NCBI GenBank assembly: GCA_002305475.1
Contig: DBRB01000015.1
Coordinates: 72,987 to 136,986 of the forward strand
Direction: 5' to 3'
DNA: 64,000 nt
Origin: a candidate division WWE3 bacterium UBA1379
GTDB taxonomy: Bacteria; Patescibacteriota; WWE3; UBA101185; UBA10185
Positions 7,262 to 45,786 of the stretch are shown here, one piece after another. Within the stretch, counting starts at the first letter, position 1. Every line of letters starts with the position of its first letter. The translations under genes were made by a program, and so were the position numbers. The notes under the pieces are model-generated. The model ran no database searches, was not told the DNA's origin, and saw nothing but the letters and a program-made list of their open reading frames with translations.

Positions 7262-7262
7262 T

Positions 7263-7634: not shown

Positions 7635-7642
7635 TATAATAT

Positions 7643-20043: not shown

Positions 20044-20988
20044 ATGTCTGAGAAAAAGAAACTGGTTTCAATCGTATCACCAGCCTATAACGAAGATGTA
20101 AATATACCCCTGATGGTAGAAGAGGTGAAAAAAAGCCTTTTACCTTTAAGTGATAAATATGATTTTGAATATATCATTGTCAATGATGGAAGTTGGGACA
20201 ATAGCTGGGAAGTGATTTGTGAGGAGAATAAAAAAGATTCCAGGGTAAAAGGAATAAATTTTTCAAGAAATTTCGGACACCAGATGGCCTTGACAGCCGG
20301 TTTGGATCGGGCAAAGGGAGATGTTGTAATATATTGCGATTCTGATTTACAGCAACCGCCTTCATTATTTCCAAAGATGTTAAAACTTTGGGAAGATGGG
20401 GTGAAAGTTGTACATACAAGACGGACTTTTACTGACGGAGAAGGCACATCTAAGAAATTATTATCCAAATTATTTTATAAATTCATAAATCTTTTATCTG
20501 ATACGGAAATAAAAGAAGGTTTTGCCGATTTTAAACTACTTGATAAAGAAGTGCTGGAAAAAGTTAAAAGTATGCGTGAGCATAACCGTTTCTTACGCGG
20601 TATGGTTCCCTGGCTGGGTTTTAAGTCTGCAATCCTGGAATACAAAGCGGGAAAGCGTCTACATGGAACACCCTGGTACAACTTCAGTAGAAATCTCGAG
20701 TTTGCAAAAACAGGCATTATGTCTTTTTCCATAAAACCGTTAAAATATATAGGATATTTTGGTGTATTTTTAACCATAGGATCTATAGCAATATTATTTT
20801 TAGGAGCTGTAATCAGTTTTATAAAAGGGGCATTGTATTTCTCACCCACATTTTATCTGCTGGTATTTAATACACTTTTAAACGGATTGATGATGAGTGC
20901 ACTAGGTATTGTGGCATTGTATATCAGTTATATTTATCAGGAGGTTATAAACAGGCCGTTGTATTTGATTTCCGATGTTGTTGAATAG
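20044..20988 (+). CDS. GT2 polyprenyl-phosphate glycosyltransferase (ArnC/GtrB-like) with two C-terminal TM helices
   Basis: VSIVSPAYNE...YIIVNDGSWD...IYCDSDLQ, and a C-terminal hydrophobic pair. Confidence 0.75.
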   Translation: MSEKKKLVSIVSPAYNEDVNIPLMVEEVKKSLLPLSDKYDFEYIIVNDGSWDNSWEVICEENKKDSRVKGINFSRNFGHQMALTAGLDRAKGDVVIYCDSDLQQPPSLFPKMLKLWEDGVKVVHTRRTFTDGEGTSKKLLSKLFYKFINLLSDTEIKEGFADFKLLDKEVLEKVKSMREHNRFLRGMVPWLGFKSAILEYKAGKRLHGTPWYNFSRNLEFAKTGIMSFSIKPLKYIGYFGVFLTIGSIAILFLGAVISFIKGALYFSPTFYLLVFNTLLNGLMMSALGIVALYISYIYQEVINRPLYLISDVVE

Positions 20989-25766: not shown

Positions 25767-27209
25767 ATGAAATGGTTTGTGAAAATAGTCTTATTATCCT
25801 TGATGGTATTTTTCTTATCTTGGTTTGTGGTTTTTAAATTGGGGATTAACAAATTAAACTTACAGTCGGAGGACACTATTCCTGCTCTTTTTCTTCCTGT
25901 CACTGTTTTAAAAGAAGGAACTTTCTATATTGATTCATACTATGAAATGATTCGTGAAAAATACCCACATCCCGATGATCCGACAGGAGAACTTAAAATG
26001 ACTCCTTTTTATTTAAGAAGAGTAGTTTTTACTCAGTATAAAGATGATGAATTCGGAAATACTTATTTGGATGTGCAACCTCACTATATATCCGCATTTC
26101 CGGTTATCAGTGGTCTATTGGCTATTCCTGTCTATATTATTCCGATGTTAATTGATATGCCTATCACCTGGGAAAATCTCACTCTTCTAGGACATATTGC
26201 AGGGGCATTAATTATTGCTTTTTCAGGTGGATTTTTCTTTCTGCTTTTGAAAAAGCACTTTGATCTTGATGAAAGAAAATCACTTATTCTGACTATTGTT
26301 TATCTGTTTGGGACTATTAACTATGCTCTTATATCCCAGGCACTCTGGCAGCATGGAAGTATGCAGCTGTTTCTTATTCTTGGTCTGTATTTTCTATTTA
26401 ATGCAATAAATGAAAAAACGTCTGATACTTTATCTCAGTATTTCTGGGCAGGATTGATGTTTGGAATTTCCATTTTATCCCGTCCGACATCCGCGCTATC
26501 CTGGATATTTATATATGTCATTATCTACTTTGCCAATCAGCATTCTGTAAAAAATCTTATTAACAGATCTCTTTTTTACACCATGGGTTTGATTCCGGTC
26601 GCTGCATTCTTTATGTGGTATAACCAGACCTATTATTTATCCATTAATAATCAGGGTTATTCTGATCAGTTAGGAGACAGCTGGCTTGGTAGATTTCCCG
26701 AAGGTTTTTTGGGTGTCTGGTTTTCTCCCAGCAAAGGGATACTTATATATTCTCCGGTAATCGTATTTTCTCTGATCGGTCTGTACTTATTAATTAAAAA
26801 CAAACACTGGCAAAAATCTATCCACTTTATTGTTTTTGCTTTAATTGTTTTGATTCATACATTAGTGATAGGAAAGTGGAAGCATTGGTACGGTGGGTGG
26901 TCATTCGGATATCGGATGAGTGCGGATATTATTCCGTATTTAGTTCTTCTGATGATTCCGTATATCCGGTCTGATTTGTTTGAAAAAACAAAAAAGATAT
27001 TCTTTGGCTTATTGGTTTTTTCCATTCTGGTTCAGATATTCGGTATTATCTTTTTTGACGGTATCTGGCATGCAGCATATGATGGTGGATATGAGGATAC
27101 CGGATGGCTATGGTCTATCAAAAATAGTGAATTCCTCTTTAATATCAGAAGAATTTTAGTTAAACTAGGGTTAATGGAGCAAGCCTGTCCACGATGTCTT
27201 CCCGGATAA
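25767..27209 (+). CDS. Polytopic membrane protein (possible GT-C-like glycosyltransferase)
   Basis: 480 aa, multi-TM, with short loops rich in W/Y. Confidence 0.4.
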   Translation: MKWFVKIVLLSLMVFFLSWFVVFKLGINKLNLQSEDTIPALFLPVTVLKEGTFYIDSYYEMIREKYPHPDDPTGELKMTPFYLRRVVFTQYKDDEFGNTYLDVQPHYISAFPVISGLLAIPVYIIPMLIDMPITWENLTLLGHIAGALIIAFSGGFFFLLLKKHFDLDERKSLILTIVYLFGTINYALISQALWQHGSMQLFLILGLYFLFNAINEKTSDTLSQYFWAGLMFGISILSRPTSALSWIFIYVIIYFANQHSVKNLINRSLFYTMGLIPVAAFFMWYNQTYYLSINNQGYSDQLGDSWLGRFPEGFLGVWFSPSKGILIYSPVIVFSLIGLYLLIKNKHWQKSIHFIVFALIVLIHTLVIGKWKHWYGGWSFGYRMSADIIPYLVLLMIPYIRSDLFEKTKKIFFGLLVFSILVQIFGIIFFDGIWHAAYDGGYEDTGWLWSIKNSEFLFNIRRILVKLGLMEQACPRCLPG

Positions 27210-27212
27210 TAT

Positions 27213-28451
27213 ATGCAAAATCCTAATCAAAGATACAATATCATTTGTTTATCTAATCAGTTATGGGATTTTCCCAACTGGACCAATAAACGTCATGTGA
27301 TGACCAGACTAGCAAAAGCCGGCCATCACGTCCTGTTTGTTGATCCTCCTCTAAATACTGGTAATGTCTTTTTCCGACAGATAAAAAGAGGATTGTGGAA
27401 TATTCGAAGAATTCTGACTCAGACCCATCGGGATACTATAGGAGCATTAATTTATACACCCCTTAATGTCATTCCTTTTAGTGAAATCACATCTTCCTGG
27501 CATATTAAAAGAATTAATAAGCTGGGAAATAAAGAATTTGATAAAGGTTTAAAAACCATATTGTGGATTTATCATGTTCAGATCCCTTATCTTATTGAAT
27601 ACATCAGTAAGCTGGAATACGATATTCTTGTTTATGATTGCGTGGACAACTATGAGGGTTTCCCTTCCAGTAGTTCATTCTATTCAGCAACCGTTCCTAA
27701 AGAAAAAGTGATGGAACAGGAGAAGATGCTGTCAGAGAGAGCGGATATTGTGTTTGCTACGGCTCCGGGTTTGGTAGATAAGCTGAAAAATTACACAGAT
27801 AAGGTGTTTTTTACTCCCAATGTCGGAGACTATGAAAAATTCAAAGTAGTAAGAAGTGATTCCAGGGAGATAAAAGTTGAAGTGCCCGTAGAATTAGAAA
27901 ATATCAAACGACCGAGAGTCGGATTTACCGGAGCTTTGGATGAATATAAATTCGATTTGGAACTTTTCAAAAAATCTGCGATGGCACATCCCGATTACAG
28001 CTTCATTCTGATTGGTCAGATTGCCCTAAAGGATAAATCTACTGATCTTTCGGACCTTGGTTTGTCTGACCTACCCAACGTTTATTTTCTGGGTTATAAA
28101 CCCTATGAGACATTGGAAGGATATTATGAGGGGTTTGATGCGTTTATCATTCCTTATCAATTGAATGACTATACAGTAGGCGGTTGCTTTCCTGTAAAGT
28201 TTCATGATGCTCTAGCAGCTGGTCTACCTACGGTAGTTACCGATTTGCCGGCATACCGTCCTTTTGATAATATCTGTTATATTTCCAAAACTGATGACGA
28301 TTTTATTGCTAATATCACGAAATCTTTGGATGAAGACAATGGTGAGCGAACCAGATCCAGAAAGGAGGTTGCCAAACAGAATTCCTGGGAGGGTAAGGTT
28401 GAAACAATGCTGTCTTTATTGAGCAGCCAAGTATTATACAAAGATCAATAG
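27213..28451 (+). CDS. Glycosyltransferase, GT4/GT1-like
   Basis: C-terminal Rossmann nucleotide-sugar binding region (FLGYKPYETLEGYY...DAFIIPY...AAGLPTVVTD). Confidence 0.5.
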   Translation: MQNPNQRYNIICLSNQLWDFPNWTNKRHVMTRLAKAGHHVLFVDPPLNTGNVFFRQIKRGLWNIRRILTQTHRDTIGALIYTPLNVIPFSEITSSWHIKRINKLGNKEFDKGLKTILWIYHVQIPYLIEYISKLEYDILVYDCVDNYEGFPSSSSFYSATVPKEKVMEQEKMLSERADIVFATAPGLVDKLKNYTDKVFFTPNVGDYEKFKVVRSDSREIKVEVPVELENIKRPRVGFTGALDEYKFDLELFKKSAMAHPDYSFILIGQIALKDKSTDLSDLGLSDLPNVYFLGYKPYETLEGYYEGFDAFIIPYQLNDYTVGGCFPVKFHDALAAGLPTVVTDLPAYRPFDNICYISKTDDDFIANITKSLDEDNGERTRSRKEVAKQNSWEGKVETMLSLLSSQVLYKDQ

Positions 28452-28487
28452 TATTTGCCTGATGGGACTGAAATAGGAGAGGATAAG

Positions 28488-28790
28488 ATGACTTCTTCAA
28501 TATTTGCAACATGTGAAGGGTGCAGTTTGCATATTGAAATGATACCGTTCATCGCTTTTTGTGGTGAGTCTGTCAGAGTCGACCTTGTAAGAGATTTGTA
28601 TGTAGACGGATGGCCTACCACTGCGTCTCGAAGAAGTAGTTTTAGGGTTAATGTCGAAGACAATGAATTAAGGGCAAAGATAGCAGAATGGTTGAAGAGT
28701 GAAGTAATGCAATCACTTTCTCTTAAAGAAGAATGTTTAGAAGGTATTGTAAATAAAATTGTTGAAATGATTCGGAAGCCTCCTGGATAG
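28488..28790 (+). CDS. Hypothetical small protein (about 100 aa) with a CEGC...C motif
   Basis: A strong SD (GGAGAGG) sits 5 nt before the ATG at 28488. Composition is protein-like and locally GC-richer. No recognisable family. Confidence 0.3.
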   Translation: MTSSIFATCEGCSLHIEMIPFIAFCGESVRVDLVRDLYVDGWPTTASRRSSFRVNVEDNELRAKIAEWLKSEVMQSLSLKEECLEGIVNKIVEMIRKPPG

Positions 28791-28954
28791 AAAAAAGCGC
28801 AACAAAAGCGATAATTTTTCTTTATTTGTGCCGTTGATGCTTCGAAGTTCTCGAGCAAAAACGGCATATCATATTTTAAATACCAGCAAATGAATACTTT
28901 ATTGAAAATATGAAATTCGTGCAGATATTGTTCCTTCAAGCTATAATTTCCTAA

Positions 28955-30103
28955 ATGAAGATACTCTATATTCTAAATTCAGGTAATCCGGGTGGTATGG
29001 AACAGCATGTATTGGATTTGGTTCGGTATATGACTGATCATGGTCATAAAGTATATGTGTGGTGTAGGGAAGGTGTAGTGGCAGACTGGTATCGTCAGGC
29101 ACAAGCACAGGTAACAACCATATCCATAAATATTGAAATTGATCCTGTATATATTTATAAGCTGGTAAAGTTTCTCAGACAGGAAAAGATTGAAATTATC
29201 CATGCTCATGAATTAAAACCGGTAGTAAATAGTGTGATAGCAGGATTTATTTCCAGAGTTAAAGTTCGAATAACTCATACACATACTCCGATATCAACTT
29301 GGAAAATCGGTTCAGCAGCAAAGGTGATAAATACATTAGTGAACACATGGGTGGTAAACATTTTAGCAACAAAAGAGATTGCTCTTACAGAATCACGGAA
29401 GGAAATAAAGAAAAACGAGGGGATTAGAGAGGAAAAACTGGAAATAATTCCCAACGGGTTGGATACCCAAAACTTTGATATCTCTCCACAGCTGAAACAA
29501 TCCTACTCTTTTGAAATTAGAAATAAGCACCAGATTCCTAAGGATGCATTTATCTTTGGTCTGGTAAGCAGACTAACAGAAGAAAAAGGTCATGAAGTAT
29601 TGATTAAAGCATTTAAGAAATTACTGGAATATTCCTTATTAAATAAGGAGAATATTTATTTGATGTTGGTAGGGGGTGGAAGACTGGAAGAAAAATTGAA
29701 AGAATTAGCATCAGAATGTGGGTTATCAGAAAGAGTGATATTTACGGGAGTATTTAGGGAGGAAGACAAAGTTAAATATTATTCTGCCATTGATATTTTT
29801 GTCTTTCCCTCATTAACGGAAGGTTTCGGTTTGGTGCTGATAGAAGCTATGTATTCAAAACTACCGATCGTCTGTTCAAATCTGGAAGTGCTTCAGGAAG
29901 TGGGAGGTTCAACTGTGATGTATTTTGAGGTTGGCAATTCAGATGATTTAGCGGAAAAAATGATGAATCTTTATCAGAAAAAAGACCGACTGACAGAGCT
30001 GACTGAAAGTGCAAGAGCAAGGGTAGAACAACTGTATACTTATGAAAAATTCGGGGATAACTACGAAAATCTGTATTTTAATCTCTTAAACCCTCATGCA
30101 TAA
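28955..30103 (+). CDS. GT4-family glycosyltransferase
   Basis: N-terminal GNPGGMEQHV and C-terminal VFPSLTEGFGLVLIEAMYSKLPIVCSN. Confidence 0.8.
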   Translation: MKILYILNSGNPGGMEQHVLDLVRYMTDHGHKVYVWCREGVVADWYRQAQAQVTTISINIEIDPVYIYKLVKFLRQEKIEIIHAHELKPVVNSVIAGFISRVKVRITHTHTPISTWKIGSAAKVINTLVNTWVVNILATKEIALTESRKEIKKNEGIREEKLEIIPNGLDTQNFDISPQLKQSYSFEIRNKHQIPKDAFIFGLVSRLTEEKGHEVLIKAFKKLLEYSLLNKENIYLMLVGGGRLEEKLKELASECGLSERVIFTGVFREEDKVKYYSAIDIFVFPSLTEGFGLVLIEAMYSKLPIVCSNLEVLQEVGGSTVMYFEVGNSDDLAEKMMNLYQKKDRLTELTESARARVEQLYTYEKFGDNYENLYFNLLNPHA

Positions 30104-30160: not shown

Positions 30161-30505
30161 TTATCTGCAAATCTGATCCCGTAAAGTGTTAATATTTTTA
30201 TTTAGGAAGCAGTAATTTTTGGAATAAACATCTTTTCCTTTTTTACTACCACTATCGTATACTCCAATGATATGAGCCACTTTTTTAAAGACCTTCTTTG
30301 CCAGTTCTTTTGAATTATTATCATATGGGCTACTCTTTTTAAATATTGCAAACATTAACTCTTCCAACTCCATAAAAAAATTACGGTCAAAATTATCTGG
30401 AAGAGGAAGGAGTAGTTGTCTGAGAATCTTTTTTGTTTTGTTCTGATCGTTTAATCTTAACGGTGTATAAAGTACTTTACCAGTAGGTGTGAATTTACCA
30501 GACAT
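30161..30505 (-). CDS. Hypothetical small protein (114 aa)
   Basis: Canonical SD (AGGAGAAAGAC-ATG). Its start and C-terminal contexts are conserved with the neighbouring 60-aa ORF. No family recognised. Confidence 0.35.
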   Translation of the reverse strand: MSGKFTPTGKVLYTPLRLNDQNKTKKILRQLLLPLPDNFDRNFFMELEELMFAIFKKSSPYDNNSKELAKKVFKKVAHIIGVYDSGSKKGKDVYSKNYCFLNKNINTLRDQICR

Positions 30506-30902: not shown

Positions 30903-32039
30903 ATGAAAATCCTCATGCAAGGCCGGTACGAACTTCTTGCTAAAGGCGGCGGCGACAAAGTACAAATTGAAAATACTGCTAAGGAACTTAGAAACTTGGG
31001 AGTAAATGTTGATATTGTTGGTGGTCCTGTAAAGGATCTTTCTTCTTATGACCTTGTGCATTTATTTCAACTTGACTGGACTCCAGAAACATATTTTCTG
31101 GCCAAAAATGCTAAAGATGCAGGAAAACCACTTGTATTATCCCCAATTCATCACAGCGTGAAGGAAGTAAAGAGATTTGATGATGAATATGTTTTCGATT
31201 TCCGCAGACTATCAAAAATATTGTTCAAAGAACAGCATAAAAGGGATACTTTCAAAAATATATACAGGTCTTTGATTAATCCTCAGAAACTTAAACCCAC
31301 ATTGCAAAGTATAAATATTGGATTAAAGAACATGCATATCAGAACACTTAGTATGGCAGATATTATTCTAGTGCAGACTGAAGCAGAAGCAACGGATTTA
31401 AAAGATACATATGGGGTAGATTTTTCATGGGTGAAAATACCAAACGGAGTTGGAGAACCGTTCTTAAAGGCAAATAAATCAGATAGTAAATTACCCAATC
31501 CACTGGGTTTTCAGGACTATATTATTTGTGTAGGTAGAATTGAGCCCAGAAAAAATCAGATTAAAGTGATTGAAGCAGTAAATTGTTTACGGAAAGAAAA
31601 GAACATGGATATAAGACTGGTTTTTATCGGATCTATGAACAGCGAAAAACATTTTGAGTATAAGTACAAGTTCCGCAAAACTCTCAAGCAGTACACATGG
31701 ATTAAACATATAGAATCAGTTCCTTATGATGTAATGCCTGCATATTATAAATATGCAAAAGTCGGTGTTTCTGCCAGTTGGTTTGAAACAACTGGACTGA
31801 CCAGCCTAGAAGCTTTATTCTGTGGTAGTAATGCTGTCGCATCAGGTAAACGGGCTAAGGAGTATCTGGGTGATCTGGTGAGCTATTGTGATCCGGGAGA
31901 CGTCAATTCCATCCAGAAAGCTATAGATACTGAATATTTTAATCAGCGTCCTACAGTTCCGGAAAATATGTTTAAGGAATATACATGGGAAAATGCGGCA
32001 AAGAAAACTTTGGAGGTTTATCACAAACTGATAAAATAA
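30903..32039 (+). CDS. GT4-like glycosyltransferase
   Basis: ICVGRIEPRKN...ASWFETTGLTSLEALFCGSNAVAS. 378 aa. Confidence 0.6.
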   Translation: MKILMQGRYELLAKGGGDKVQIENTAKELRNLGVNVDIVGGPVKDLSSYDLVHLFQLDWTPETYFLAKNAKDAGKPLVLSPIHHSVKEVKRFDDEYVFDFRRLSKILFKEQHKRDTFKNIYRSLINPQKLKPTLQSINIGLKNMHIRTLSMADIILVQTEAEATDLKDTYGVDFSWVKIPNGVGEPFLKANKSDSKLPNPLGFQDYIICVGRIEPRKNQIKVIEAVNCLRKEKNMDIRLVFIGSMNSEKHFEYKYKFRKTLKQYTWIKHIESVPYDVMPAYYKYAKVGVSASWFETTGLTSLEALFCGSNAVASGKRAKEYLGDLVSYCDPGDVNSIQKAIDTEYFNQRPTVPENMFKEYTWENAAKKTLEVYHKLIK

Positions 32040-32043
32040 TTGT

Positions 32044-34953
32044 GTGCACCCCGAATTAATAGTTATTGGATTATTATTCATAATATCTTTAGTCCTTCTA
32101 TTAACCAACTTTAAAGCTGGTTTTTATGTGCTTCTAATTTTATCTGTTTTACTACATAAAGAACTTTTCAGCATTTTCAGATGGGATATTCTTCCGGTCA
32201 GACTATTTATGGTAGCATTTACAATCTTTGCAGGTATTAAAGGTCTCCAATGGTTCATTAAAGAGAAACGCATTAAGAGTGTTTTTAATCATGCTGCAAA
32301 TCCGTTTATTCTTTTCCTTTTAGCATTATGGTTGGTTCGTGCAATATCTTTGATCTTTAGTAAGAACATGCAGTCCAGTATTCAGCTTTTGGGTTTTTTT
32401 ACCTCTATGGTGGTTCTAGGTATTTATCTTTTTTACTACTTTCAGAGCAAACCTCAGGAAATAATTAAATTTATTAAATTTTATATCTTTGTAGTTTTTG
32501 GTTTGTGTGTTTTTGCATTTATTCAGCTGATTATTTATGCACAGACAGGTAAAATTTACGGAGCATTGTGGAACGTCCCCGGACATTTATCAAGAGTCGG
32601 ATCACTATTTTGGGATGTGAACCATTTCGGGGGATTATTAGCTGGTCTTCTTCCGGTATTAGGTATATTTATTTTGGTCTCAAAAGGTGTTAAGGAAAGA
32701 TTAGGATACATGTTGCTTATTATTCCGATGTCACTGGTTCTTTTATTAACCAATTCACGTACTTCCTGGATCAGTGCCTTTATTGCATTGATGGTATTTA
32801 TCACCTTAATGATAGTGAGGAGAGTGGGTGTAAAAGGTGTGGTTGCAGTTGTTTTGGCATTGATCCTGATATCTATACCGTTTGTTATTGAGTATCAGGA
32901 TAAATCCAGTCCCTTTAGAGCCAGGGTAAAACAGTATTTCCATTACAGAATAGATTCGTTTGATTCGCACCTGCTACTGTTAAGAGGTGCATTTCAGGTA
33001 TTTGAATCATATCCGTATATTGGTGGCGGTTATGGTAGTTTCTTTGAACATTTTTCCAAGACAAAGGTAGCTGCTGAATTTTTCGGTAGAGATCCTGCGG
33101 CACTAAATGTCCGTGTACCTGCTCATACCATATGGGGGGAATTAGTGGCAGAAACAGGCATTACCGGATTGGCAGTATTCATCCTTTTTATACTTTCCGG
33201 ATTGCTGCCCCTTTTATATCTATCACAAAATCAGAAAGATAAAAAAGAATACTTAATTTCTTCAGCTATGTTAGCCGGTTTGGTAGGATGGCTTACTGCC
33301 GGAATATTTTACTCATACAATTCAGAGTTTTTCTGGCTAGTGTTCTTTATGTATTTCATCTATGGATTGAACATTTTAGGGCGGGATAAGTACGGAAAAA
33401 TTATTTCTCACTACACCCAGCATAATAGTATCGGTTTTTGGTTGATCCTAATTATCTCAGTAGGTTTGGTTTTCTTTAACTTAGGGAAAAACCACCTATT
33501 GCCTTGGGATGAGGCTATATATGCACAGATTGCTAAAAATATGGTGCAATCGGGAGATTTTATTGTTCAGAGATGGTGGCCGGATAGGGTATGGTATGAA
33601 AAACCTCCGCTTGGTATGTGGCTGATAGCAGTTTCATTCAAATTATTTGGAATTTCTGAATTTACAGCTCGATTATCTTCAGCAATATTTGGAATCGGTA
33701 CGGTATTAATTGTGTATTTCTTCGGAAGAAGAATGTTTAATAAAACAGTTGGTTTTATTTCGGCATTGTCTCTATTGACCACATTTAACTTTTTATATTA
33801 TTCCCGGGCATCAATGCTTGATGTAACTTCTACATTCTTTATTACTTTATCTCTGTTTTTATACTGGCTGGCAAAAAATAATAACAGAAATCAGATTATG
33901 TATTGGGTAATCTCCGGTCTTACGGTTGGAATGAGTATTATGGTAAAAGGGGTAGTCGGTTTTATACCATTTGCGGTGATAGGTATGTTTGAAATATATC
34001 TATTCCTGATAAAGAAACAAAAGCTTAACAGCCGACTTTTTTTGGGATATTTCTCATTCTTCATATTCAGTGTATTGGTATTTATGCCATGGCATTTGGA
34101 AATGTATAGGAGATTTGGTGCTGCGTTTATTGATAATTATCTTGGATATCATGTTCTGGATAGGGCAACATCGTCCATAGAAGATAAAGGAAGACCGTTC
34201 TTCTGGTACACGATAGTCATGAAAGTGAGTATGCGAATCTGGTTTGTGGTATTAATTCCTGCTTTACTTTCGATTATGTACGGAATTTATAAGAAATCAG
34301 ATAAAAATACATTCCTTATGATCTGGCTCGTTTTCATTTTTCTCCTATTTTCCAGCGCTACATCAAAATTAAAATGGTACATTATTCCGATTTATCCTGC
34401 TACATCTTTAATGGTTGGGTATTTCCTTGAACGAGCCTTAGATTTTCTATTCAATAAGGTGAAAGTATTAAACCCGGTAATAATTAAAACCATGTTCCTC
34501 TACTCTCTGGTGGTATTCGGCTTGTTTTATTTATTTGTGAACAGGGAGCTAGTTTACGAAACGGATTTGACGGGAGCACAGGCACTACTTTTGGAAGAGA
34601 AGGATCAGATATTCGGAACCGATACGAAAGTGTATGCAGATAGAATTGACCTGCCGTTGATCTTATATTACTCCGACAGTCCGTTTGAAGTCGTCGATTT
34701 TGCACCCTTAAATGAGAAAATATCCGTACTTACTCCTGAAGATAAATTTATCTTTATAACCAAAGAAAGTCGTTATAGAAAACTAAAGGAGAGCTACCCC
34801 AGAATAGAAAAGGTATCCGGTTATAAAGAATGGGTTATGGGTTTCATTTCGTATGGGTATGATTATGACTCTTCAACTAAAGAGGTGAATCCTATCGATC
34901 AACCATTGATTCCACCCGTAGATACCCCAATACAAATCCAAAATAACCCTTGA
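32044..34953 (+). CDS. Fusion membrane protein: N-terminal O-antigen ligase/polymerase-like (Wzy_C) domain plus C-terminal ArnT/PMT-like GT-C domain
   Basis: 969 aa with a GTG start. The N-terminal half has TNSRTSWISAFIAL...GGGYGSFFEHF...VPAHTIWGELVAETGITGL (O-antigen ligase family signature). The C-terminal half has PWDEAIYAQIAKNM (the DE-x-RYA-like acceptor loop of ArnT/PMT) and PLGMWLIAVSFKLFGISEFTARLSSAIFGIGTVLIVYFFGRRMF. Confidence 0.55.
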   Translation: MHPELIVIGLLFIISLVLLLTNFKAGFYVLLILSVLLHKELFSIFRWDILPVRLFMVAFTIFAGIKGLQWFIKEKRIKSVFNHAANPFILFLLALWLVRAISLIFSKNMQSSIQLLGFFTSMVVLGIYLFYYFQSKPQEIIKFIKFYIFVVFGLCVFAFIQLIIYAQTGKIYGALWNVPGHLSRVGSLFWDVNHFGGLLAGLLPVLGIFILVSKGVKERLGYMLLIIPMSLVLLLTNSRTSWISAFIALMVFITLMIVRRVGVKGVVAVVLALILISIPFVIEYQDKSSPFRARVKQYFHYRIDSFDSHLLLLRGAFQVFESYPYIGGGYGSFFEHFSKTKVAAEFFGRDPAALNVRVPAHTIWGELVAETGITGLAVFILFILSGLLPLLYLSQNQKDKKEYLISSAMLAGLVGWLTAGIFYSYNSEFFWLVFFMYFIYGLNILGRDKYGKIISHYTQHNSIGFWLILIISVGLVFFNLGKNHLLPWDEAIYAQIAKNMVQSGDFIVQRWWPDRVWYEKPPLGMWLIAVSFKLFGISEFTARLSSAIFGIGTVLIVYFFGRRMFNKTVGFISALSLLTTFNFLYYSRASMLDVTSTFFITLSLFLYWLAKNNNRNQIMYWVISGLTVGMSIMVKGVVGFIPFAVIGMFEIYLFLIKKQKLNSRLFLGYFSFFIFSVLVFMPWHLEMYRRFGAAFIDNYLGYHVLDRATSSIEDKGRPFFWYTIVMKVSMRIWFVVLIPALLSIMYGIYKKSDKNTFLMIWLVFIFLLFSSATSKLKWYIIPIYPATSLMVGYFLERALDFLFNKVKVLNPVIIKTMFLYSLVVFGLFYLFVNRELVYETDLTGAQALLLEEKDQIFGTDTKVYADRIDLPLILYYSDSPFEVVDFAPLNEKISVLTPEDKFIFITKESRYRKLKESYPRIEKVSGYKEWVMGFISYGYDYDSSTKEVNPIDQPLIPPVDTPIQIQNNP

Positions 34954-35531: not shown

Positions 35532-36869
35532 ATGAGGACTATTATTAGAGATACTTTAAATAAAGTTGGAGAAAAAGCCACAATTTATGGTTGGGTTAGG
35601 CTGGTGCGTGACCACGGTAAAGTGACGTTTGTGGATGTGAGAGATTTTTCTGGTGTGATACAGGTGGTGTTTGTCGGTAATGCCGATGCTAAATCCCTGC
35701 GCAGTGAAGATGTAGTAGTGATTGAGGGTACTGTGCAGCAGAGAAAAGCCGGAACGGAGAATACGGAAATCGAAACAGGGTCAATAGAAATTTTCGGTGA
35801 ATCGCTTACAGTATTGGAGAGAGCGGGTGATCTACCTATTGATATGGGTGCTGCGGAATTAAATGTAGAGCTTCCAACTTTACTGGATCATCGTTCTTTA
35901 ACTTTACGTCATCCCAAAGTGCAGGCAATTTTTAAAGTGCAGGAAATTATTGTAGATGCGTTTCGTAATGCTCTAAAAGAAAAAGATTTTACCGAATTTG
36001 TTGCTCCAGCTATTGTTCCTACAGCTACCGAAGGCGGGGCGGAAGTTTTTAAGATTGACTATTTTGACTACAATGCCTTTTTAGGTCAGAGCCCACAGTT
36101 TTATAAGCAGATTATGGTTGGAGCGTTTGAACGGGCTTTTACCGTAGGTAAGGTATATCGGGCTGAACCGTCTGTGACAACCCGGCATCTGACTGAATAT
36201 CTATCTCTTGATGCTGAATTCGGTTTTATTAATGATTTTATGGAAATAATGGATATGGTTGAGTATGTTATGAGAAGGATTTTTAAAGATCTTAGCGAGA
36301 AAGGTGAAAAATACCTTAAACTGTATGGAGCAACAATCCCTCAGTTTTCGGATAAGATTCCTGCAGTTACTATGGACGAAGCTAAGGAAATAATTTTCAA
36401 AAGAACAGGCAGGGATATAAGAAAAAAACCTGACCTTGATCCACAAGGTGAAAAAGATATCTGTCAGTATGCATATGAAGAGTTCGGAAGTGAACTGATT
36501 TTTGTGACTCATTATCCGACAGCAAAAAGACCTTTTTATACATATCCAAATAAGGATAATACGGAGATAACGGACAGCTTTGATTTAATCGGCAGAGGTG
36601 TGGAATGGGTTACTGGCGGTCGAAGAATCAATAATTATGAACATATTGTGGAGAATGCAAAAAAGTGGGGAAATGATCCTGAAGCATTAGATATTTATCT
36701 TCAAGCTTTCAGATACGGCATGCCTCCCGAGGGTGGTTTTGCCTTAGGTGCGGAACGAATCACTATGAATATCTTAGGTCTTCAAAACATCAGAGAAGCA
36801 TCTGCATTCCCACGAGATATGGAAAGAGTTGATGTGATGCTGCGGGATATACAACCTGAGGAAGAATAA
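35532..36869 (+). CDS. aspS: Aspartyl-tRNA synthetase, short archaeal/eukaryal-like class IIb form (likely non-discriminating)
   Basis: 445 aa, lacking the bacterial GAD insertion. N-terminal OB anticodon-binding domain, class II motifs, and the C-terminal GGFALGAERITMNILGLQNIREASAFPRD (motif 3). Confidence 0.9.
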   Translation: MRTIIRDTLNKVGEKATIYGWVRLVRDHGKVTFVDVRDFSGVIQVVFVGNADAKSLRSEDVVVIEGTVQQRKAGTENTEIETGSIEIFGESLTVLERAGDLPIDMGAAELNVELPTLLDHRSLTLRHPKVQAIFKVQEIIVDAFRNALKEKDFTEFVAPAIVPTATEGGAEVFKIDYFDYNAFLGQSPQFYKQIMVGAFERAFTVGKVYRAEPSVTTRHLTEYLSLDAEFGFINDFMEIMDMVEYVMRRIFKDLSEKGEKYLKLYGATIPQFSDKIPAVTMDEAKEIIFKRTGRDIRKKPDLDPQGEKDICQYAYEEFGSELIFVTHYPTAKRPFYTYPNKDNTEITDSFDLIGRGVEWVTGGRRINNYEHIVENAKKWGNDPEALDIYLQAFRYGMPPEGGFALGAERITMNILGLQNIREASAFPRDMERVDVMLRDIQPEEE

Positions 36870-37322: not shown

Positions 37323-38513
37323 TTACTTCTTAACAAACATCAGAACATACGTCAATCCGACTGCTGATATTCCTGCTATTAGAGAGGAATATGCTAGTCC
37401 GGTAAGAGCCAGACTAGGAACCAAAATCAGGGATCCAAGTAGAAAGACTAGAAGCTTAAATACGGAAATATGGAAAAGAGCTTTTGTCTTTTGTTCCACA
37501 AAAAAGTAATTTTCCGTGAAAGTATGAATTGCTGTTAAAGCACTCGTAAAGATTAAAATATTCAGCAGTGGGAGAGATTCCAGGAATTTTTCTCCGAAAA
37601 CGAAAGGTATAAAAAACCTAGCAAAGATCATGGCACATAGTGATAACAAAAGTATTCCTGCGGAGATCAATCCTGTTTCCTTAAAGTCATACTTTTTGTT
37701 TTCTCTTTTACCTCTGGCATTTTTTGGAAGTAGTACCGTGAATATGGATAAGGACACCAGAGAAAAAATTGTGGAGATTTTATCTGCCAGAGAAAAAATA
37801 CCTACATCTGAAAAACCCTGAGCAATTTTTGCGATGCTGTTTGCAATTGCTGACCAGCTTTCTGCAATGATTTGTGATATTCCTGCAGGAAAACTCTGAC
37901 TGAAAATTAATTTTAGTCCTGAAAAATCCGGTCTGAAATATTGTAGATCTTTGGGAAGAAAAAAGAAAAGAATGATACTAGGAGCTACCGAACCTACAAA
38001 TACTAAAAAACCCTGAGTAAAATTAAGACTAAACAAACCAAGCAGAATGAATACTGCAACTACTCCTTTAATAAATGCCGGGATGGAGTTTAATAAAATC
38101 AGGTACTCAAATTTTTCTATTTTTTGAAACAGACCGAATAATGCAAAATTCAAAGTATATACGATCAGTCCGAATAAAAAGAGAAGATAAATTGTGGTAT
38201 CTGAAAAATTCAGAAATCTTAATGCTAAGTATGAAATAGGAAGAGTGACAGCAAATAGAATTATTTTTAAAGAAAGGAATTTATCTTTGATCAGTTCATT
38301 TTGAGCTAAAGCTTTGGCAACATATAGTGAGTTGGTACCAAAATCAGTTATTTTTGCAATGGCTACCAGAAGACTGGTTGTAAGTGTATATCTACCAAAA
38401 TCATCCAGCGGAAGACTTTTTGCCAGAGCGGTTAAGAATAAAAACCCCAGGGCTGCATTTAAAATGTTCCCCACACCGACAAATGAAATTTTCCATAAGG
38501 ATTTTGTCATCAC
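37323..38513 (-). CDS. Polysaccharide flippase-like protein (Wzx / MOP superfamily)
   Basis: 396 aa with about 12 TM helices. The N-terminal VGNILNAALGFLFLTALAKSL...DFGRYTL is typical of Wzx-family proteins. Confidence 0.55.
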   Translation of the reverse strand: MMTKSLWKISFVGVGNILNAALGFLFLTALAKSLPLDDFGRYTLTTSLLVAIAKITDFGTNSLYVAKALAQNELIKDKFLSLKIILFAVTLPISYLALRFLNFSDTTIYLLFLFGLIVYTLNFALFGLFQKIEKFEYLILLNSIPAFIKGVVAVFILLGLFSLNFTQGFLVFVGSVAPSIILFFFLPKDLQYFRPDFSGLKLIFSQSFPAGISQIIAESWSAIANSIAKIAQGFSDVGIFSLADKISTIFSLVSLSIFTVLLPKNARGKRENKKYDFKETGLISAGILLLSLCAMIFARFFIPFVFGEKFLESLPLLNILIFTSALTAIHTFTENYFFVEQKTKALFHISVFKLLVFLLGSLILVPSLALTGLAYSSLIAGISAVGLTYVLMFVKK

Positions 38514-38958: not shown

Positions 38959-39116
38959 AAGGCTCTATCCTTTTTACTCTTCTCCATTAATTACGATCCG
39001 ATGATTCGGTTTGTCACCGGTAGTATTAAAATTCACTATAATACTTTTGTTTAATTAAATAAATAGAAGCATATTGGTGTTTTTGTATGCATACTTATAG
39101 GATGTACAATTATTAT

Positions 39117-40226
39117 ATGAAAATAGCTCTGGTGTGTGATGATCTGATTCAGTTTGGCGGTCAGGAACGCCTTATATTGGCATTGCATGAACTCTGGCCT
39201 GATGCACCCATTTTTACCTCGGTGGTATCTGAAAAATGGAAGAAGATATGTGAGGAAAAGAAAATATTACTGAAAGTTTCTTTTATGCAGAAACTTCCTT
39301 GGATCGAGAAACTTAATCGGTTCTACTCGGTATTTCTTTTTCATCAGTTGGCTTTTGAGAGCTTTGATTTCACAGGTTACGATGTGATTCTGTCAGTATC
39401 TGCCCGGTATTCACATTGCATTATCACCAAACCACAGACAATTCATATCTGCTATATGAACAGTCCCGGAAGAATGATCTGGGAGCCCCATCTATATTTT
39501 AGAAAAGAAAACTTCGGAGTGTTAAGATACTTTTCAAAAATATTTCTTAGTTTTCCTTTAAGTCTTTTAAGAGCGGGGGATTATTCTTCAGCTCAGGGAG
39601 TAGATTATTTTATTGCTAATTCCCTTACATCAAAAAACAGGATAAAGAAATATTATGGAAGGGACTCGATCGTAATTCACCCGTTTGCGGATATAAAACC
39701 TTTCGAAAATACAGACAGCGGAAACTTTTTTTTGGTAATCAGCAGACTGAATGCCTGGAAAAGAATCGATACCGCTGTGGAAGCATGTACAAGGCTAAAG
39801 ATACCCTTAAGGGTTATAGGGACCGGACCTGATTTGATAAGACTGAAACGAATTGCTGGGGATACTGTGGAATTTTTGGGATATGTCAGAGAGGAAGTTA
39901 AATCGGAAATGCTGGGAAAGTGTACTGCTTTAATAAATACACAGGAGGAGGATTTTGGGATTGTGCCGGTGGAGGCAATGGCTCACGGAAAACCGGTTAT
40001 CGCATACGGAAATGGAGGGGTATGTGAAACTGTAGAGCCGGGAATAACTGGTGAATTTTATTACGAACAGACGGCAGATTCATTGATGGAAGTATTGGAG
40101 TTTTTTGATTCAAAAAAATATGACCCGGATATTTGCAAGAAATCAGCTGAACGATTTACCAAATATGAGTTTTTAACGAGTGTTCAACGTTATGTAAATG
40201 AGGTATACTTTTCTAGACGTAACTAG
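39117..40226 (+). CDS. GT4-family glycosyltransferase
   Basis: MKIALVCDD...GGQER N-terminus and EDFGIVPVEAMAHGKPVIAYGNGGVCETV. An alternative upstream ATG at 39087 is the ORF-track start. Confidence 0.75.
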   Translation: MKIALVCDDLIQFGGQERLILALHELWPDAPIFTSVVSEKWKKICEEKKILLKVSFMQKLPWIEKLNRFYSVFLFHQLAFESFDFTGYDVILSVSARYSHCIITKPQTIHICYMNSPGRMIWEPHLYFRKENFGVLRYFSKIFLSFPLSLLRAGDYSSAQGVDYFIANSLTSKNRIKKYYGRDSIVIHPFADIKPFENTDSGNFFLVISRLNAWKRIDTAVEACTRLKIPLRVIGTGPDLIRLKRIAGDTVEFLGYVREEVKSEMLGKCTALINTQEEDFGIVPVEAMAHGKPVIAYGNGGVCETVEPGITGEFYYEQTADSLMEVLEFFDSKKYDPDICKKSAERFTKYEFLTSVQRYVNEVYFSRRN

Positions 40227-40238
40227 AAGCGTTCAACT

Positions 40239-40874
40239 ATGTCGCTTTATTCTATCGGAAAAAGATTAATAGATATTATTGGGGGATTAATAGGAGTGAT
40301 ATTATTTTCCCCTTTCATGATCGGAACAGCTATTTATATTAAATTAGTATCCCCCGGCGGTACTGTATTTGTGGAAGCGGCAAAACGGGTAGGTCGAAAC
40401 GGCAAGGAATTTCCCATGTATAAATTCAGAACTATGATACCTTACGCTCAAAAATGGCTAGAAAACCAGCCGGAACTATATAAAAAATATCAGGAAAACG
40501 GCTATAAACTGGATCCTGATCCCAGATGGATCAAGGGGGCAAAAATCATTCGTAAATTCAGTCTTGATGAATTTCCACAGTTTATTAATGTAGTAAAAGG
40601 TGATATGAGTCTGGTTGGGTATAGGGCCTATTATCGATATGAACTAGATGAGCAGTTATGCATGCATCCGGAAGTAAAAGAATATTTAGATAAAGCATTA
40701 ACCGTCAAACCGGGTATTACGGGAGTATGGCAGACCAGTGGAAGATCGAAAGTAGGATTTGTGGACAGGGTAAAAATGGATGCAGCATACGCTGATAAAC
40801 AATCTTTACTTTATGATATATTTATAATTCTGAAAACACCTTATGTAGTAATTTCAGGAAAAGGAGCTTTTTGA
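40239..40874 (+). CDS. Initiating polyprenyl-phosphate phosphoglycosyltransferase, small monotopic PglC/WbaP-C-terminal type (bacterial sugar transferase family)
   Basis: An N-terminal re-entrant helix, then GRNGKEFPMYKFRTM and DELPQ-like FPQFINVVKGDMSLVG motifs. 211 aa. Confidence 0.85.
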   Translation: MSLYSIGKRLIDIIGGLIGVILFSPFMIGTAIYIKLVSPGGTVFVEAAKRVGRNGKEFPMYKFRTMIPYAQKWLENQPELYKKYQENGYKLDPDPRWIKGAKIIRKFSLDEFPQFINVVKGDMSLVGYRAYYRYELDEQLCMHPEVKEYLDKALTVKPGITGVWQTSGRSKVGFVDRVKMDAAYADKQSLLYDIFIILKTPYVVISGKGAF

Positions 40875-42817
40875 TGTCTACTAACTTTTGGCAGCCTAAT
40901 AACAATTCAAGACCTCAGGTTAATCTTAATAACCGGGGATTTAAAAAGAAGAATGGTTGGCTTAAACGTTTAGGAGTCGGCAGTGGGGTGCTGATTGCTA
41001 TTGTAGCTGTAGTCGGAATAATCGGTTTTATCTTGGTAATTAAACCCTTGTTATCTTTAGGTTCAAATGTTAGTGCCTTAAGAGCAGACGGAAGAGCAAT
41101 AAATAAAGCTTTAGTAGATCGGGACGTAGAAGCTATGGAGAAAGCTTTAAACAATACAGAGAAAGATCTCAAGGAATTCCAAATTGCCAGAGATAAGAAT
41201 GTAGGTTGGGCAAGAAACTTCGGTCCTACTAAAGAATACTATGCAGATTCGGAAAGATTTATTAATGCCGGATTATATGTAGTTGCTGCAGGTCGAGAAA
41301 CCGTCAAACTGGTTATGCCCTTCGCAGATGCAGCCGGTCTAAAAGTTTCAGGAGATACCAAGACTTCTTCATCTGAAACCGGACTTGCAGACGCTATCGC
41401 ACAGTGGGTAGCTATCATGCCGCAGATTGCAGATCAGATGGATCCTGCATTAAATTTATTGGATAAAGCAGGAGAAGAATTAAAACCGATTGATGCAAGC
41501 AAGTATCCTGAAAGCATCAGAGGATTTGCGGTACGAACCAACATTGAAGCTGCACAGACTGCATTAAGTTCAGTTGATCAGTATGCTCCCGACATTAAAA
41601 AAGCTTTAACTATTATTCCTAAACTATTAGGGGTAGGCGGTGAAAAACGATACATGATTATCATGCAGAATGATAAGGAAATTCGAGCTACTGGAGGTTT
41701 TTGGACTAACTATGCCACATTTAGAATCAACAACGCCATGTTGGTAAACCATGATATTTCCTCAAAAGATATGTATAGTATTGATCTGACCTTAGACCTG
41801 ATAGATGCTGTACACACCTTCCCTACTGCTCCTGCTGCATATCAGAGGTATCTGAAGGTCGAAAGACTGTATGCAAGAGATGCTAATATATCACCTGATT
41901 TCCCAACAGCAGTAGACAAATTCATGTATTTCTACAAACTCGCCATGCCTTTGGCTCCGGCAGAAATTAAACCGATTGACGGGATTGTGGCAATTGATAC
42001 TGAAGTGATCAAAGAGCTGTTGAATGTTACCGGACCGGTGACTGTAAATGGTGTGACATATAACAAAGATAATGTGGTTTTGGAGCTTGAAAGAACAGCT
42101 TCTCTGGAGTTAAGAGAACAGGTGGGAAGAAAGAAAGTACTGGGTGATCTAATGGAAGGTATGATGAAAAATGTGTTTGAGTCCGATAGAAATCTCTGGC
42201 CGAAAATGATTGAAACCGGAATTGATTTAGTCAACCGTAAGCATATCATTGGTTATTCATTCGATCAGGAAGCTCAGGCACTGATTGAGGAATATAAAAT
42301 TGGCGGAAGAATCATTGATCCGGTGGAAGGCGATTACTCCTATGTAGTATCTACAAACTTAGGTGGAGATAAAACCAACTGGTTTGTTAAAAAAGAAATT
42401 GATCACACCCTTTCCAAAGAAGGCAATAAGTATATAGATACCGTAACTATAAAGTATTCTTATCCACAACCCGGAGCTGAATATTCTCCTTTTGTGAAGA
42501 GATTTAGAGATTGGGTACGGGTCTATGCTCCGCTAAATTCACGACTGATTAATGTAACCGGTTCTGCGGAAGAAGCCGTAACCGATCAGGAGAGAAACAA
42601 AACTTATTTTACGGGTTATATCGAACTGGGACCTGGAGAATCTGCAGAAATGACCTTTAAATATGAACTTGCGGATAGTGTAGTGAAAAACGGAGTATAC
42701 AATCTATACATCCAAAAGCAGTCGGGAACCAACGGTGAAATCCATCGGGTGATAGTAAACGGAAAAACGGAAAATATCACTTTAACCAAAGATGCAGAAA
42801 TCTCTAAAAAACTTTGA
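40871..42817 (+). CDS. DUF4012-like secreted or membrane-anchored protein
   Basis: 648 aa with one N-terminal TM. The internal MQNDKEIRATGGFWTNYA resembles the NAElR-TGGfiG core of DUF4012 proteins, which commonly sit beside phosphoglycosyltransferases. It overlaps the PGT stop (ATGA). Confidence 0.45.
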   Translation: MMSTNFWQPNNNSRPQVNLNNRGFKKKNGWLKRLGVGSGVLIAIVAVVGIIGFILVIKPLLSLGSNVSALRADGRAINKALVDRDVEAMEKALNNTEKDLKEFQIARDKNVGWARNFGPTKEYYADSERFINAGLYVVAAGRETVKLVMPFADAAGLKVSGDTKTSSSETGLADAIAQWVAIMPQIADQMDPALNLLDKAGEELKPIDASKYPESIRGFAVRTNIEAAQTALSSVDQYAPDIKKALTIIPKLLGVGGEKRYMIIMQNDKEIRATGGFWTNYATFRINNAMLVNHDISSKDMYSIDLTLDLIDAVHTFPTAPAAYQRYLKVERLYARDANISPDFPTAVDKFMYFYKLAMPLAPAEIKPIDGIVAIDTEVIKELLNVTGPVTVNGVTYNKDNVVLELERTASLELREQVGRKKVLGDLMEGMMKNVFESDRNLWPKMIETGIDLVNRKHIIGYSFDQEAQALIEEYKIGGRIIDPVEGDYSYVVSTNLGGDKTNWFVKKEIDHTLSKEGNKYIDTVTIKYSYPQPGAEYSPFVKRFRDWVRVYAPLNSRLINVTGSAEEAVTDQERNKTYFTGYIELGPGESAEMTFKYELADSVVKNGVYNLYIQKQSGTNGEIHRVIVNGKTENITLTKDAEISKKL

Positions 42818-45782: not shown

Positions 45783-45786
45783 TGTA

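Follow-up and report, generated by a model that had tools for sequence, protein, structure and literature searches.

Two types of membrane glycosyltransferase, GT-C_B and GT-C_A, are normally separate proteins, and a gene at positions 32044..34953 (+ strand) of the window analysed here (a 64-kb stretch of WWE3 DNA) unites them in one chain. It sits in a conserved surface-glycan operon and raises the question of whether the two halves work together on the cell surface. WWE3 belongs to the CPR/Patescibacteria, ultrasmall and mostly uncultured bacteria that are believed to rely on their surface for host-cell attachment and about whose surface building very little is known. The product combines an O-antigen-ligase-type enzyme with an ArnT/PMT-type sugar transferase, and it probably performs two linked surface-glycan attachment steps at the outer face of the cell membrane. 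As the best explanation overall, a coupled WaaL-type and ArnT/PMT-type enzyme of a WWE3 (CPR/Patescibacteria) surface-glycan pathway has in our judgment an even chance of being right. Our literature search retrieved no paper with Wzy_C and PMT_2 together and none with WWE3 and O-antigen ligase, and the term "O-antigen ligase" was absent among the matches listed for its combination with CPR.

The gene begins with a GTG located 4 nt past the TAA stop of the GT4 gene at 30903..32039 and codes for 969 aa (stop codon counted in the coordinates) as one listed ORF, just as an earlier note on this DNA had claimed. With a G+C of ~35%, arithmetic from the base composition puts the chance of a 969-codon open frame at ~1e-31, but the reality of the frame is independent of this estimate, since homology settles the matter. 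An identical protein (P0001) was found in two independent public sources, and both domains are present in all homologs among the matches listed (at least 120). Once the loci truncated by contig ends are set aside, the fusion is a single ORF in 64 of 67, the closed genome CP006914 among them. The 969-residue membrane protein is thus real, and uncultured WWE3 bacteria have conserved it. Scans of the whole window for tRNAs and Rfam families gave no match.

The N-module (residues 1-445; 32044..33378, + strand) is of the WaaL/Wzy_C type (GT-C_B), that is, a lipid-PP-oligosaccharide transferase. Pfam Wzy_C (PF04932) matches residues 225-380 with 50.8 bits, above its gathering cut-off of 31.7, and the fold, which has 12 TM helices and, towards the C-terminal end, a large outer loop (residues 286-362), is WaaL-like, so that the O-antigen ligase signature proposed for this half in the earlier note is sustained. 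The motifs quoted there were all located, TNSRTSW at residues 236-242, GGGYGSFFEHF at 327-337 and VPAHTIWGELVAETGITGL at 358-376 in the N-module, and PWDEAIYAQIAKNM at 487-500 in the C-module. R239 in TNSRTSW (codon 32758..32760, +) aligns with R191 of C. metallidurans WaaL, is invariant in 37/37 of the family members over which residue conservation was computed, and is a candidate ligand of the Und-PP phosphates. The HX10G motif of the large outer loop occurs once in the fusion, from H361 to G372 (33124..33159, +), both residues being invariant in the family, and the alignment of H361 to WaaL H313 makes it the candidate catalytic His. [quoted passage not shown] The second of these Arg, R265, aligns with the invariant H309 rather than with an Arg, at a place where the alignment is uncertain, and the invariant R292 and R302 are nearby candidates for it in a region of unreliable alignment. 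The HX10G motif with its essential His is described in PMC2932511, where both polymerases and ligases have it; hence, we rejected it as a ligase marker. The N-half had no match in NCBIfam, ligase families included. By profile and fold, its nearest solved relative is the ligase WaaL, with the proviso that polymerase structures to compare with may be scarce; in sequence the two are only distantly similar (profile E about 1e-6). We infer that the N-module is a ligase rather than a polymerase.

The C-module (residues 463-969) consists of a membrane part of the ArnT/PMT type (GT-C_A), a polyprenyl-P-sugar transferase (residues 463-840; 33430..34563, +), followed by an extracytoplasmic alpha/beta domain delimited by predicted secondary structure and pLDDT (residues 841-969; 34564..34950, +). 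The latter has a mean identity of 41% across the family, and the last ~11 residues of the fusion are disordered according to pLDDT. PMT_2 (PF13231) matches at 520-683 (79.2 bits versus a gathering cut-off of 26.1) and PMT (PF02366) at 472-690 (57.5 versus 22.7), and these scores together with the GT-C_A fold agree with the ArnT/PMT-like assignment made before. The first outer loop carries D489-E490 in PWDEAIY (codons 33508..33513, +), equivalent to the ArnT active-site pair D55/E56, while E519-K520 in YEKPPL (33598..33603, +) corresponds to E84/K85, of which K85 binds the carrier-lipid phosphate (PMC7801869). By the same alignment, D593, K635, R707 and Y779 match ArnT D158, K203, R270 and Y345; hence, both the acidic pair and the positions that bind the carrier-lipid phosphate and the sugar in the ArnT/PMT type are present. 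Against the ArnT equivalog NF009784, the C-half gives only a sub-threshold match, 131 bits being far under the NCBIfam cut-off of 567. ArnT H265 and H267, which we take to be its zinc-site histidines, are replaced by Tyr and Val, neither being kept. The low score and the loss of these histidines indicate that the substrate of the C-half is not Ara4N/lipid A, and judged by its sequence this half is ArnT-like, not ArnT.

The two modules are joined by a cytoplasmic linker (residues 446-462; 33379..33429, +) that is poorly conserved, with a mean identity of 17% versus 53% and 52% in the two modules. The domain boundary had been placed near residue 470, which is about right, as the N-module ends at ~445 and the C-module opens with a helix at 463-477. 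Basic residues in the linker fit a cytoplasmic position, and the short loops carry 15 K+R inside versus 7 outside. Since the 12-TM N-module has both ends inside and is followed by a cytoplasmic linker, both catalytic loops lie outside. The predicted structure of the full chain has a pTM of 0.85, a high value which suggests that the two modules are packed in a fixed arrangement.

The gene neighborhood was compared in 80 related loci with 8-kb flanks around the fusion. Directly upstream are three GT4 genes (27213-28451, 28955-30103 and 30903-32039, all +; Pfam), the last nearly abutting the fusion, whose homologs adjoin it in 63/80, 71/80 and 70/80 loci, respectively. Two small ORFs without family match (28445-28939 and 30161-30505) lie amid them on the opposite strand. 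Downstream, there is a Wzx-type flippase (Polysacc_synt; 37323..38513, -; Pfam) that adjoins the fusion in 64/80 loci, followed by three + strand genes identified with Pfam/NCBIfam: a fourth GT4 (39087-40226; conserved in 54/80), an initiating phosphoglycosyltransferase, Bac_transf (40239-40874; 47/80), and a DUF4012 protein (40871-42817; 46/80). Two more GT-C_A-type membrane proteins (24008-25678, with an AglB-like C-domain, and 25767-27209, both +) are found at the edge of the cluster. ORF 24008 was the best candidate for a separate Wzy-type polymerase and was rejected, its fold being GT-C_A. PDB profile searches with the families of ORF 24008, ORF 25767 and DUF4012 gave no meaningful match, and hmmsearch with the profiles of both halves detected no other WaaL/Wzy-type protein in the window, nor a further paralog of the N-half or the C-half.

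A PgfS/ArnC-like GT2 that carries a pair of TM segments at its C-terminus (20044..20988, +) is the candidate maker of a polyprenyl-P-sugar donor; it aligns over its full length with PgfS and ArnC, and its names in the sources include "polyisoprenyl-phosphate glycosyltransferase". It lies 11 kb upstream of the fusion, and one relative has a homolog ~13 kb upstream; these are the only two genomes where a PgfS-like GT2 was seen near the fusion, the distance of 11-13 kb exceeding the 8-kb flanks available elsewhere. Its absence from all 80 loci is an artefact of these short flanks and no sign that linkage is lacking. CPR contain Gram-positive-type families (PMC6744442).

With these components, a pathway can be proposed. 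The small phosphoglycosyltransferase at 40239 would start an undecaprenyl-PP-linked sugar, the four GT4s (27213, 28955, 30903 and 39087) would lengthen it in the cytoplasm, and the Wzx at 37323 would flip the resulting oligosaccharide. The N-module would bind the Und-PP donor through R239 and a second conserved Arg, H361 would activate an acceptor hydroxyl, and the oligosaccharide would be moved en bloc. The C-module (D489/E490 loop, K520, R707 and Y779) would transfer one sugar from a polyprenyl-monophosphate-sugar, plausibly made by the GT2 at 20044. Their fusion makes it probable that one module works on what the other has produced. We favor an order modeled on the bimodular ligase WadA, in which the C-module would first attach one sugar to the final acceptor (Ser/Thr of a surface protein, or a lipid of the membrane or wall), and to this sugar the N-module would then join the oligosaccharide. 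In its most specific form, this would be a self-contained two-step conjugation enzyme particular to CPR, with a single primer sugar set by the PMT/ArnT-like module on a surface protein or envelope lipid at the outer face, followed by WaaL-like ligation of a pre-assembled Und-PP-oligosaccharide, a tentative idea that we regard as rather unlikely.

Part of the earlier interpretation persists only as a rival. The fused architecture it described holds, while the polymerase with side-branch glycosylation is now an alternative, and one that we consider unlikely. According to it, the N-module would be a Wzy polymerase joining flipped Und-PP units, the C-module would add a side-branch sugar from a polyprenyl-P-sugar to the growing chain, and another enzyme would attach the polymer. 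Pfam Wzy_C, HX10G and the fold all extend to polymerases as well as ligases, the cluster fits the logic of the Wzx/Wzy pathway, and either of the GT-C_A enzymes 24008 and 25767 could do the final transfer. Furthermore, a second Wzy_C paralog exists in the split-gene relative described below and in those fused lineages that are most distant, which is what a polymerase working beside a ligase would predict. The WWE3 loci of the present type, however, have a single Wzy_C module, so that attaching a polymer would call for a ligase of a non-canonical kind; no Wzz/PCP co-polymerase or LCP ligase family was found with Pfam among the ORFs of the window, and the closeness to WaaL noted above also speaks for a ligase. 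Gtr-type and GacL-type GT-C enzymes provide a likeness for such a side-branch role.

Alternatively, the modules could have two independent activities on different targets (e.g., proteins for the N-module and, for the C-module, a lipid of the membrane or a polymer of the wall), with the fusion providing only equal dosage or co-localization. Each module has its own complete catalytic set, the linker is unconserved, and split forms exist: in a distant relative, the halves are encoded by neighboring genes with a stop and 56 nt between them, and the PMT gene retains 35% identity to the C-half (E 8e-87). Against this, fusion or adjacency is kept from 63% to about 30% identity with the order of the halves constant, the whole-chain prediction suggests fixed packing, and the gene sits inside a single operon for one glycan. 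We find independent activities quite doubtful. It is very improbable that the C-module has lost transferase activity and serves as a scaffold or acceptor-binding domain, as the score under the ArnT cut-off might hint. In a sister class of 700-850 aa, the C-extension has indeed diverged strongly, its DE motif is altered and PMT_2 matches it weakly or not at all, but in the present family D489, E490, E519, K520, D593, K635, R707 and Y779, all the ArnT catalytic and ligand positions examined, are invariant in 37/37 sequences, and the C-module is as conserved as the N-half. Finally, an assembly or sequencing artefact joining two genes through a missed stop or frameshift, the refuting case raised in the earlier note, has a negligible probability, since nothing was found in its favor (the fusion is fragmented in 3 of the 80 related loci, and the placeable breaks lie away from the domain junction) and the identical public protein, the homologs and the intact loci effectively refute it.

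If the modules of the fusion are indeed coupled, they would represent a natural case in which a lipid-PP-oligosaccharide transferase and a lipid-P-monosaccharide transferase pass substrate between them, and would reveal the role of O-antigen-ligase homologs in bacteria that lack LPS. The fusion could also serve glyco-engineering as a compact tool. Were the two-step conjugation true, surface glycoconjugates would be made by a route undescribed in any organism, and WWE3 as a lineage would share an envelope feature that could mediate host-cell attachment. Coupling can be tested directly, given that the catalytic residues are invariant and that relatives with split genes exist.

CPR are generally regarded as having a Gram-positive-type envelope and as being without LPS; hence, the acceptor of the N-module is unlikely to be lipid A-core. 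The WaaL of C. metallidurans (PDB 7TPG/7TPJ; CAZy GT121; GT-C_B) is free of a second transferase, whereas the N-half of the fusion is joined to one. ArnT (undecaprenyl-phosphate-L-Ara4N:lipid A transferase; PDB 5EZM/5F15; GT83; GT-C_A) acts on lipid A, which is not expected in the lineage of the fusion, and its counterpart here, the C-half, is part of a larger protein. Protein O-mannosyltransferases (PMT/GT39; yeast Pmt1/2/4 and bacterial Pmt) differ in that the C-half is nearer to ArnT than to them and that Pfam detected only PMT, PMT_2 and Wzy_C in the fusion, with no MIR domain. The logic of GtrA/B/C, GacI/GacL, CsbB/YfhO and PgfS/PgfM is the same, with a GT2 with C-terminal TM segments making the polyprenyl-P-sugar and a GT-C enzyme transferring it outside. 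The GT-C enzyme of these three-component systems is free-standing, unlike that of the fusion, which is joined to a ligase/polymerase.

In the S-layer glycosylation of Gram-positive bacteria, the role of protein O-oligosaccharyltransferase is filled by enzymes with Wzy_C (PMC2943079). PglL, PilO and WsaB/WsfB share the Wzy_C domain with the N-module and transfer Und-PP-linked glycans to surface proteins, even without an outer membrane, and compared by description they have TPR motifs or no extra module rather than a GT-C_A (PMC2943079); such enzymes offer a plausible picture of how the N-module might function. WadA (Brucella/Mesorhizobium; GT121 + GT25) resembles the fusion in that a module of the O-antigen-ligase family is joined to a second glycosyltransferase, one that adds the acceptor sugar, implying coupled action (PMC10920833). 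Its partner, however, is a globular GT25 that adds the last core sugar, whereas that of the fusion is not a GT25 but a polytopic GT-C_A that would use a lipid-P-sugar at the outer face; the two proteins come from unrelated lineages and resemble each other in logic only.

The open reading frame at 32044-34953 on the forward strand begins with a GTG codon, 4 nt past the stop of the preceding GT4 gene, and codes for a protein of 969 amino acids. The coordinates and length of the earlier note agree with our ORF listing, and all the motifs quoted there were located (residues 236-242, 327-337, 358-376, and 487-500). The protein consists of an N-half (residues 1-445) and a C-half (463-969) joined by a linker (446-462). 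Pfam places Wzy_C at 225-380, PMT at 472-690, and PMT_2 at 520-683, all above the gathering cutoff, while NCBIfam gave no match to the N-half and one to ArnT at residues 467-839 that is below threshold (131 bits versus a cutoff of 567). Against PDB sequences, the full-length family profile matched only ArnT (E 8e-40) and the N-half profile only WaaL (7TPG; E 8.9e-7), in agreement with the structural matches of both halves, so the union of an O-antigen-ligase-like and an ArnT/PMT-like domain proposed from the sequence is borne out. Since O-antigen ligases (GT121) are GT-C_B enzymes with lipid-PP-oligosaccharide donors, and GT83 and GT39 are GT-C_A enzymes with lipid-P-monosaccharide donors (PMC10920833), the fusion is a GT-C_B plus GT-C_A tandem.

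A frameshift or an unnoticed stop dividing two genes, which the earlier note had considered, is excluded by homology. Searched with the full-length protein, a set of 5.8 billion proteins yielded 292 clusters; among the 120 matches listed, all carry PF04932, PF13231, and PF02366 in 899 to 1072 aa, with identities of 46 to 63% plus one identical entry (found in NCBI and in a Logan assembly), and their source names, where given, are candidate division WWE3 or Patescibacteria. Scanning species-representative genomes revealed a relative in 107, the closed genome CP006914 among them. We kept 80 related loci for comparison; the fusion is one ORF of 880 aa or more in 64, is truncated at contig ends in 13, and is fragmented in 3, where the placeable breaks lie away from the domain junction.

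Both modules look catalytically competent. In the alignment with WaaL, R191 and H313 correspond to R239 and H361 of the fusion, the latter being the first residue of its single HX10G motif, whose leading histidine is essential in the WaaL of Pseudomonas aeruginosa and Escherichia coli (PMC2932511). The second arginine of WaaL, R265, aligns less certainly, to H309, with R292 and R302 close by as candidates. In the ArnT alignment, where the chain index was judged from the PDE and YFEKPP motifs to be the native numbering plus 3, D55/E56, E84/K85, D158, K203, R270, and Y345 correspond to D489/E490, E519/K520, D593, K635, R707, and Y779; in ArnT these form the active-site acidic pair, phosphate ligands, and sugar and acceptor contacts (PMC7801869). 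All these fusion positions are invariant in the 37 family members compared. Mean identity to the fusion across the family is almost the same for the N-half (53%) and the membrane part of the C-half (52%), lower for the C-terminal soluble domain (41%), and lowest for the linker (17%). The invariant positions and the nearly equal identities of the membrane parts indicate that the two modules are under similar selection.

Helices taken from the predicted structure model give 12 transmembrane helices in the N-half, if residues 2-35 are taken as a single kinked span. Placing the N-terminus inside leaves the large loop 286-362 and H361 outside and the linker inside; the first C-half helix (463-477) then runs outwards, leaving D489/E490 outside. 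The short loops contain 15 lysines and arginines on the side proposed to be cytoplasmic versus 7 outside, a distribution consistent with the positive-inside rule. In ArnT, the N-terminus is inside and the C-terminal domain outside. WaaL has 12 transmembrane segments (PMC2932511), and the predicted topology of the halves matches what is known for both enzymes. Modelled topology and charge distribution together suggest that both active sites face one extracytoplasmic side.

An exhaustive N-half-only search of 1.84 billion representatives gave only 70 matches at E ≤ 1e-30. The 100 representatives that match the N-half strongly comprise 42 in which an ArnT-like C-half is fused to it, 28 in which a diverged polytopic C-extension of 270 to 440 aa follows (in some, with a weak PMT_2 signal), 8 with the N-half only, and 22 fragments. 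One N-half-only relative (P0148) sits on a 285-kb contig in the order GT4, Wzy_C (460 aa), a TAG stop plus 56 nt, PMT/PMT_2 (497 aa), GT4, a second Wzy_C (428 aa), and Wzx; this split arrangement occurs on several contigs. The split-form PMT protein shares with the C-half the motif WDE-IYAKIAKN and 35% identity over 465 residues (E 8e-87). The same two activities occurring in one chain or in neighboring genes is classic evidence of functional coupling.

The most distant fused lineages have a second, shorter Wzy_C paralog directly downstream. In three of these (L076, L077, and L079) it is a protein of ~740 aa with a Wzy_C domain, Pfam-shown for L077, and a diverged C-extension, and in the split-gene relative (L082/L085) two Wzy_C genes stand alone within one cluster. 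These paralogs suggest that the ligase/polymerase module was duplicated anciently and that WWE3 genomes like this one were reduced to a single copy. L076, whose fusion is 35% identical to ours, is labelled Candidatus Woesearchaeota archaeon, which could reflect a mis-binned contig or transfer between CPR bacteria and DPANN archaea.

The fusion is located within a large glycan-biosynthesis region (G+C of the window, ~35%; tRNA and Rfam scans of the window gave no matches) whose gene order around the fusion is constant across related loci. Within 8 kb, the three GT4 genes immediately upstream have homologs in 63, 71, and 70 of the 80 loci, and downstream are an opposite-strand Wzx flippase (64), a further GT4 (54), a small Bac_transf phosphoglycosyltransferase (47), and a DUF4012 protein (46); RecO has a homolog in 33. 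An aspartyl-tRNA synthetase gene (35532-36869, forward, 445 aa), accompanied by small ORFs including an opposite-strand DUF378 gene, lies between the fusion and Wzx in only 2 of the 80 loci and so was inserted locally into a gene order that is otherwise fixed. The DUF4012 protein (40871-42817, forward, 648 aa, one N-terminal transmembrane segment) has 59% mean column identity and many invariant residues, and a sequence search of the PDB found no relative of its family. DUF4012 is reportedly enriched in CPR and Gram-positive bacteria and is found in a Bifidobacterium CPS/EPS cluster (PMC6744442); here it is a candidate partner, e.g., a chain-length or export factor.

Two further GT-C_A-type membrane proteins flank the cluster. 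ORF 25767 (25767-27209, forward) adds a third GT-C-type enzyme to the fusion operon; it has a weak PMT_2 match, a match to the LA_3751/LA_3752 family, homologs in 52 of the 80 loci, and numerous invariant residues, an HPDD motif among them. The model of ORF 24008 (pLDDT 84) resembles Pmt4, STT3, AftD, and AglB, and its C-terminal domain is like that of AglB. Farther downstream, a PBP transpeptidase and MraW indicate that the organism makes peptidoglycan.

A forward-strand row inside the glycan region at 2827-8653 (SDR, AMP-binding enzyme, LuxE acyl-protein synthetase, LuxC acyl-CoA reductase, and hexapeptide acyltransferase) resembles a gene set for activating and reducing fatty acyl groups, which could N-acylate an amino sugar or modify it in another way. 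The variable upstream part also has four polytopic ORFs with marginal or no family assignment, at 495-2570 (forward) and 10393-12288, 13480-14637, and 14592-15722 (reverse), with 13, 10, 4, and 8 transmembrane-like segments; the last two share 46 nt and may represent a single gene that a frameshift has broken. Within the glycan region, the reverse-strand ORF at 15685-17685 (666 aa, glutamine-amidotransferase domains) resembles asparagine synthase, and the S-layer glycosylation cluster of P. alvei likewise includes an asparagine synthase homologue, WsfA (PMC2943079). The products of 43371-45818 (reverse, 815 aa, one N-terminal transmembrane or signal segment, no family match) and the adjoining 46108-46881 (reverse, weak match to a WxL-interacting peptidoglycan-binding domain) are possible surface proteins and hence possible glycan acceptors.

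The earlier note suggested that two GT2 genes, at 8668 and 20044, could supply the donor for the C-half. The product of the second (20044-20988) can be aligned over its whole length with PgfS (239 bits) and ArnC (120 bits), in each case under the equivalog cutoff, and has two C-terminal transmembrane segments; its relatives are called dolichol-phosphate mannosyltransferase or polyisoprenyl-phosphate glycosyltransferase by their sources. The gene is 11 kb upstream of the fusion, and one relative has a homolog ~13 kb upstream of its own fusion within the same supercluster, distances that the 8-kb flanks of the 80 loci are too short to reach. We regard it as the candidate donor maker, and the GT2 at 8668 as a weaker candidate.

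The best-supported reading is that the fusion is a bifunctional outer-face enzyme. The N-module would take the flipped, operon-built Und-PP-oligosaccharide and transfer it en bloc, and the C-module would transfer one sugar from a polyprenyl-P-sugar; their fusion suggests that both act on one shared molecule. We favor a ligase or oligosaccharyltransferase over a polymerase for the N-module, since its nearest solved relative is WaaL, since Pfam scans of the whole window found no Wzz/PCP or LCP family and a profile search no second WaaL/Wzy-type protein, and since Wzy_C enzymes act as protein O-oligosaccharyltransferases in Gram-positive S-layer glycosylation (PMC2943079). The polymerizing N-module with a side-branching C-module proposed in the earlier note is less likely on the first two of these grounds, and two independent activities are less likely still. 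For the bifunctional enzyme, the favored order would be to prime and then ligate, with the C-module installing an acceptor sugar to which the N-module attaches the glycan: WaaL-type ligases attach glycans to a sugar acceptor, and where a cell lacks LPS, the addition of that sugar would need to take place on the outer side of the membrane, as it does with GT-C_A enzymes.

Public databases have carried sequences of this family for years, with automatic labels like "glycosyltransferase family 39 protein"; an entry from JGI goes by the name "ArnT-like glycosyltransferase/O-antigen ligase". Literature searches found no description of the Wzy_C plus ArnT/PMT architecture, and, as far as we found, no GT-C_B plus GT-C_A tandem with such conservation across a CPR lineage has been described. 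The families of the two modules are known, however, as are bimodular ligases: WadA, a ligase fused to the glycosyltransferase that makes its acceptor (PMC10920833), is a precedent for the arrangement proposed here.
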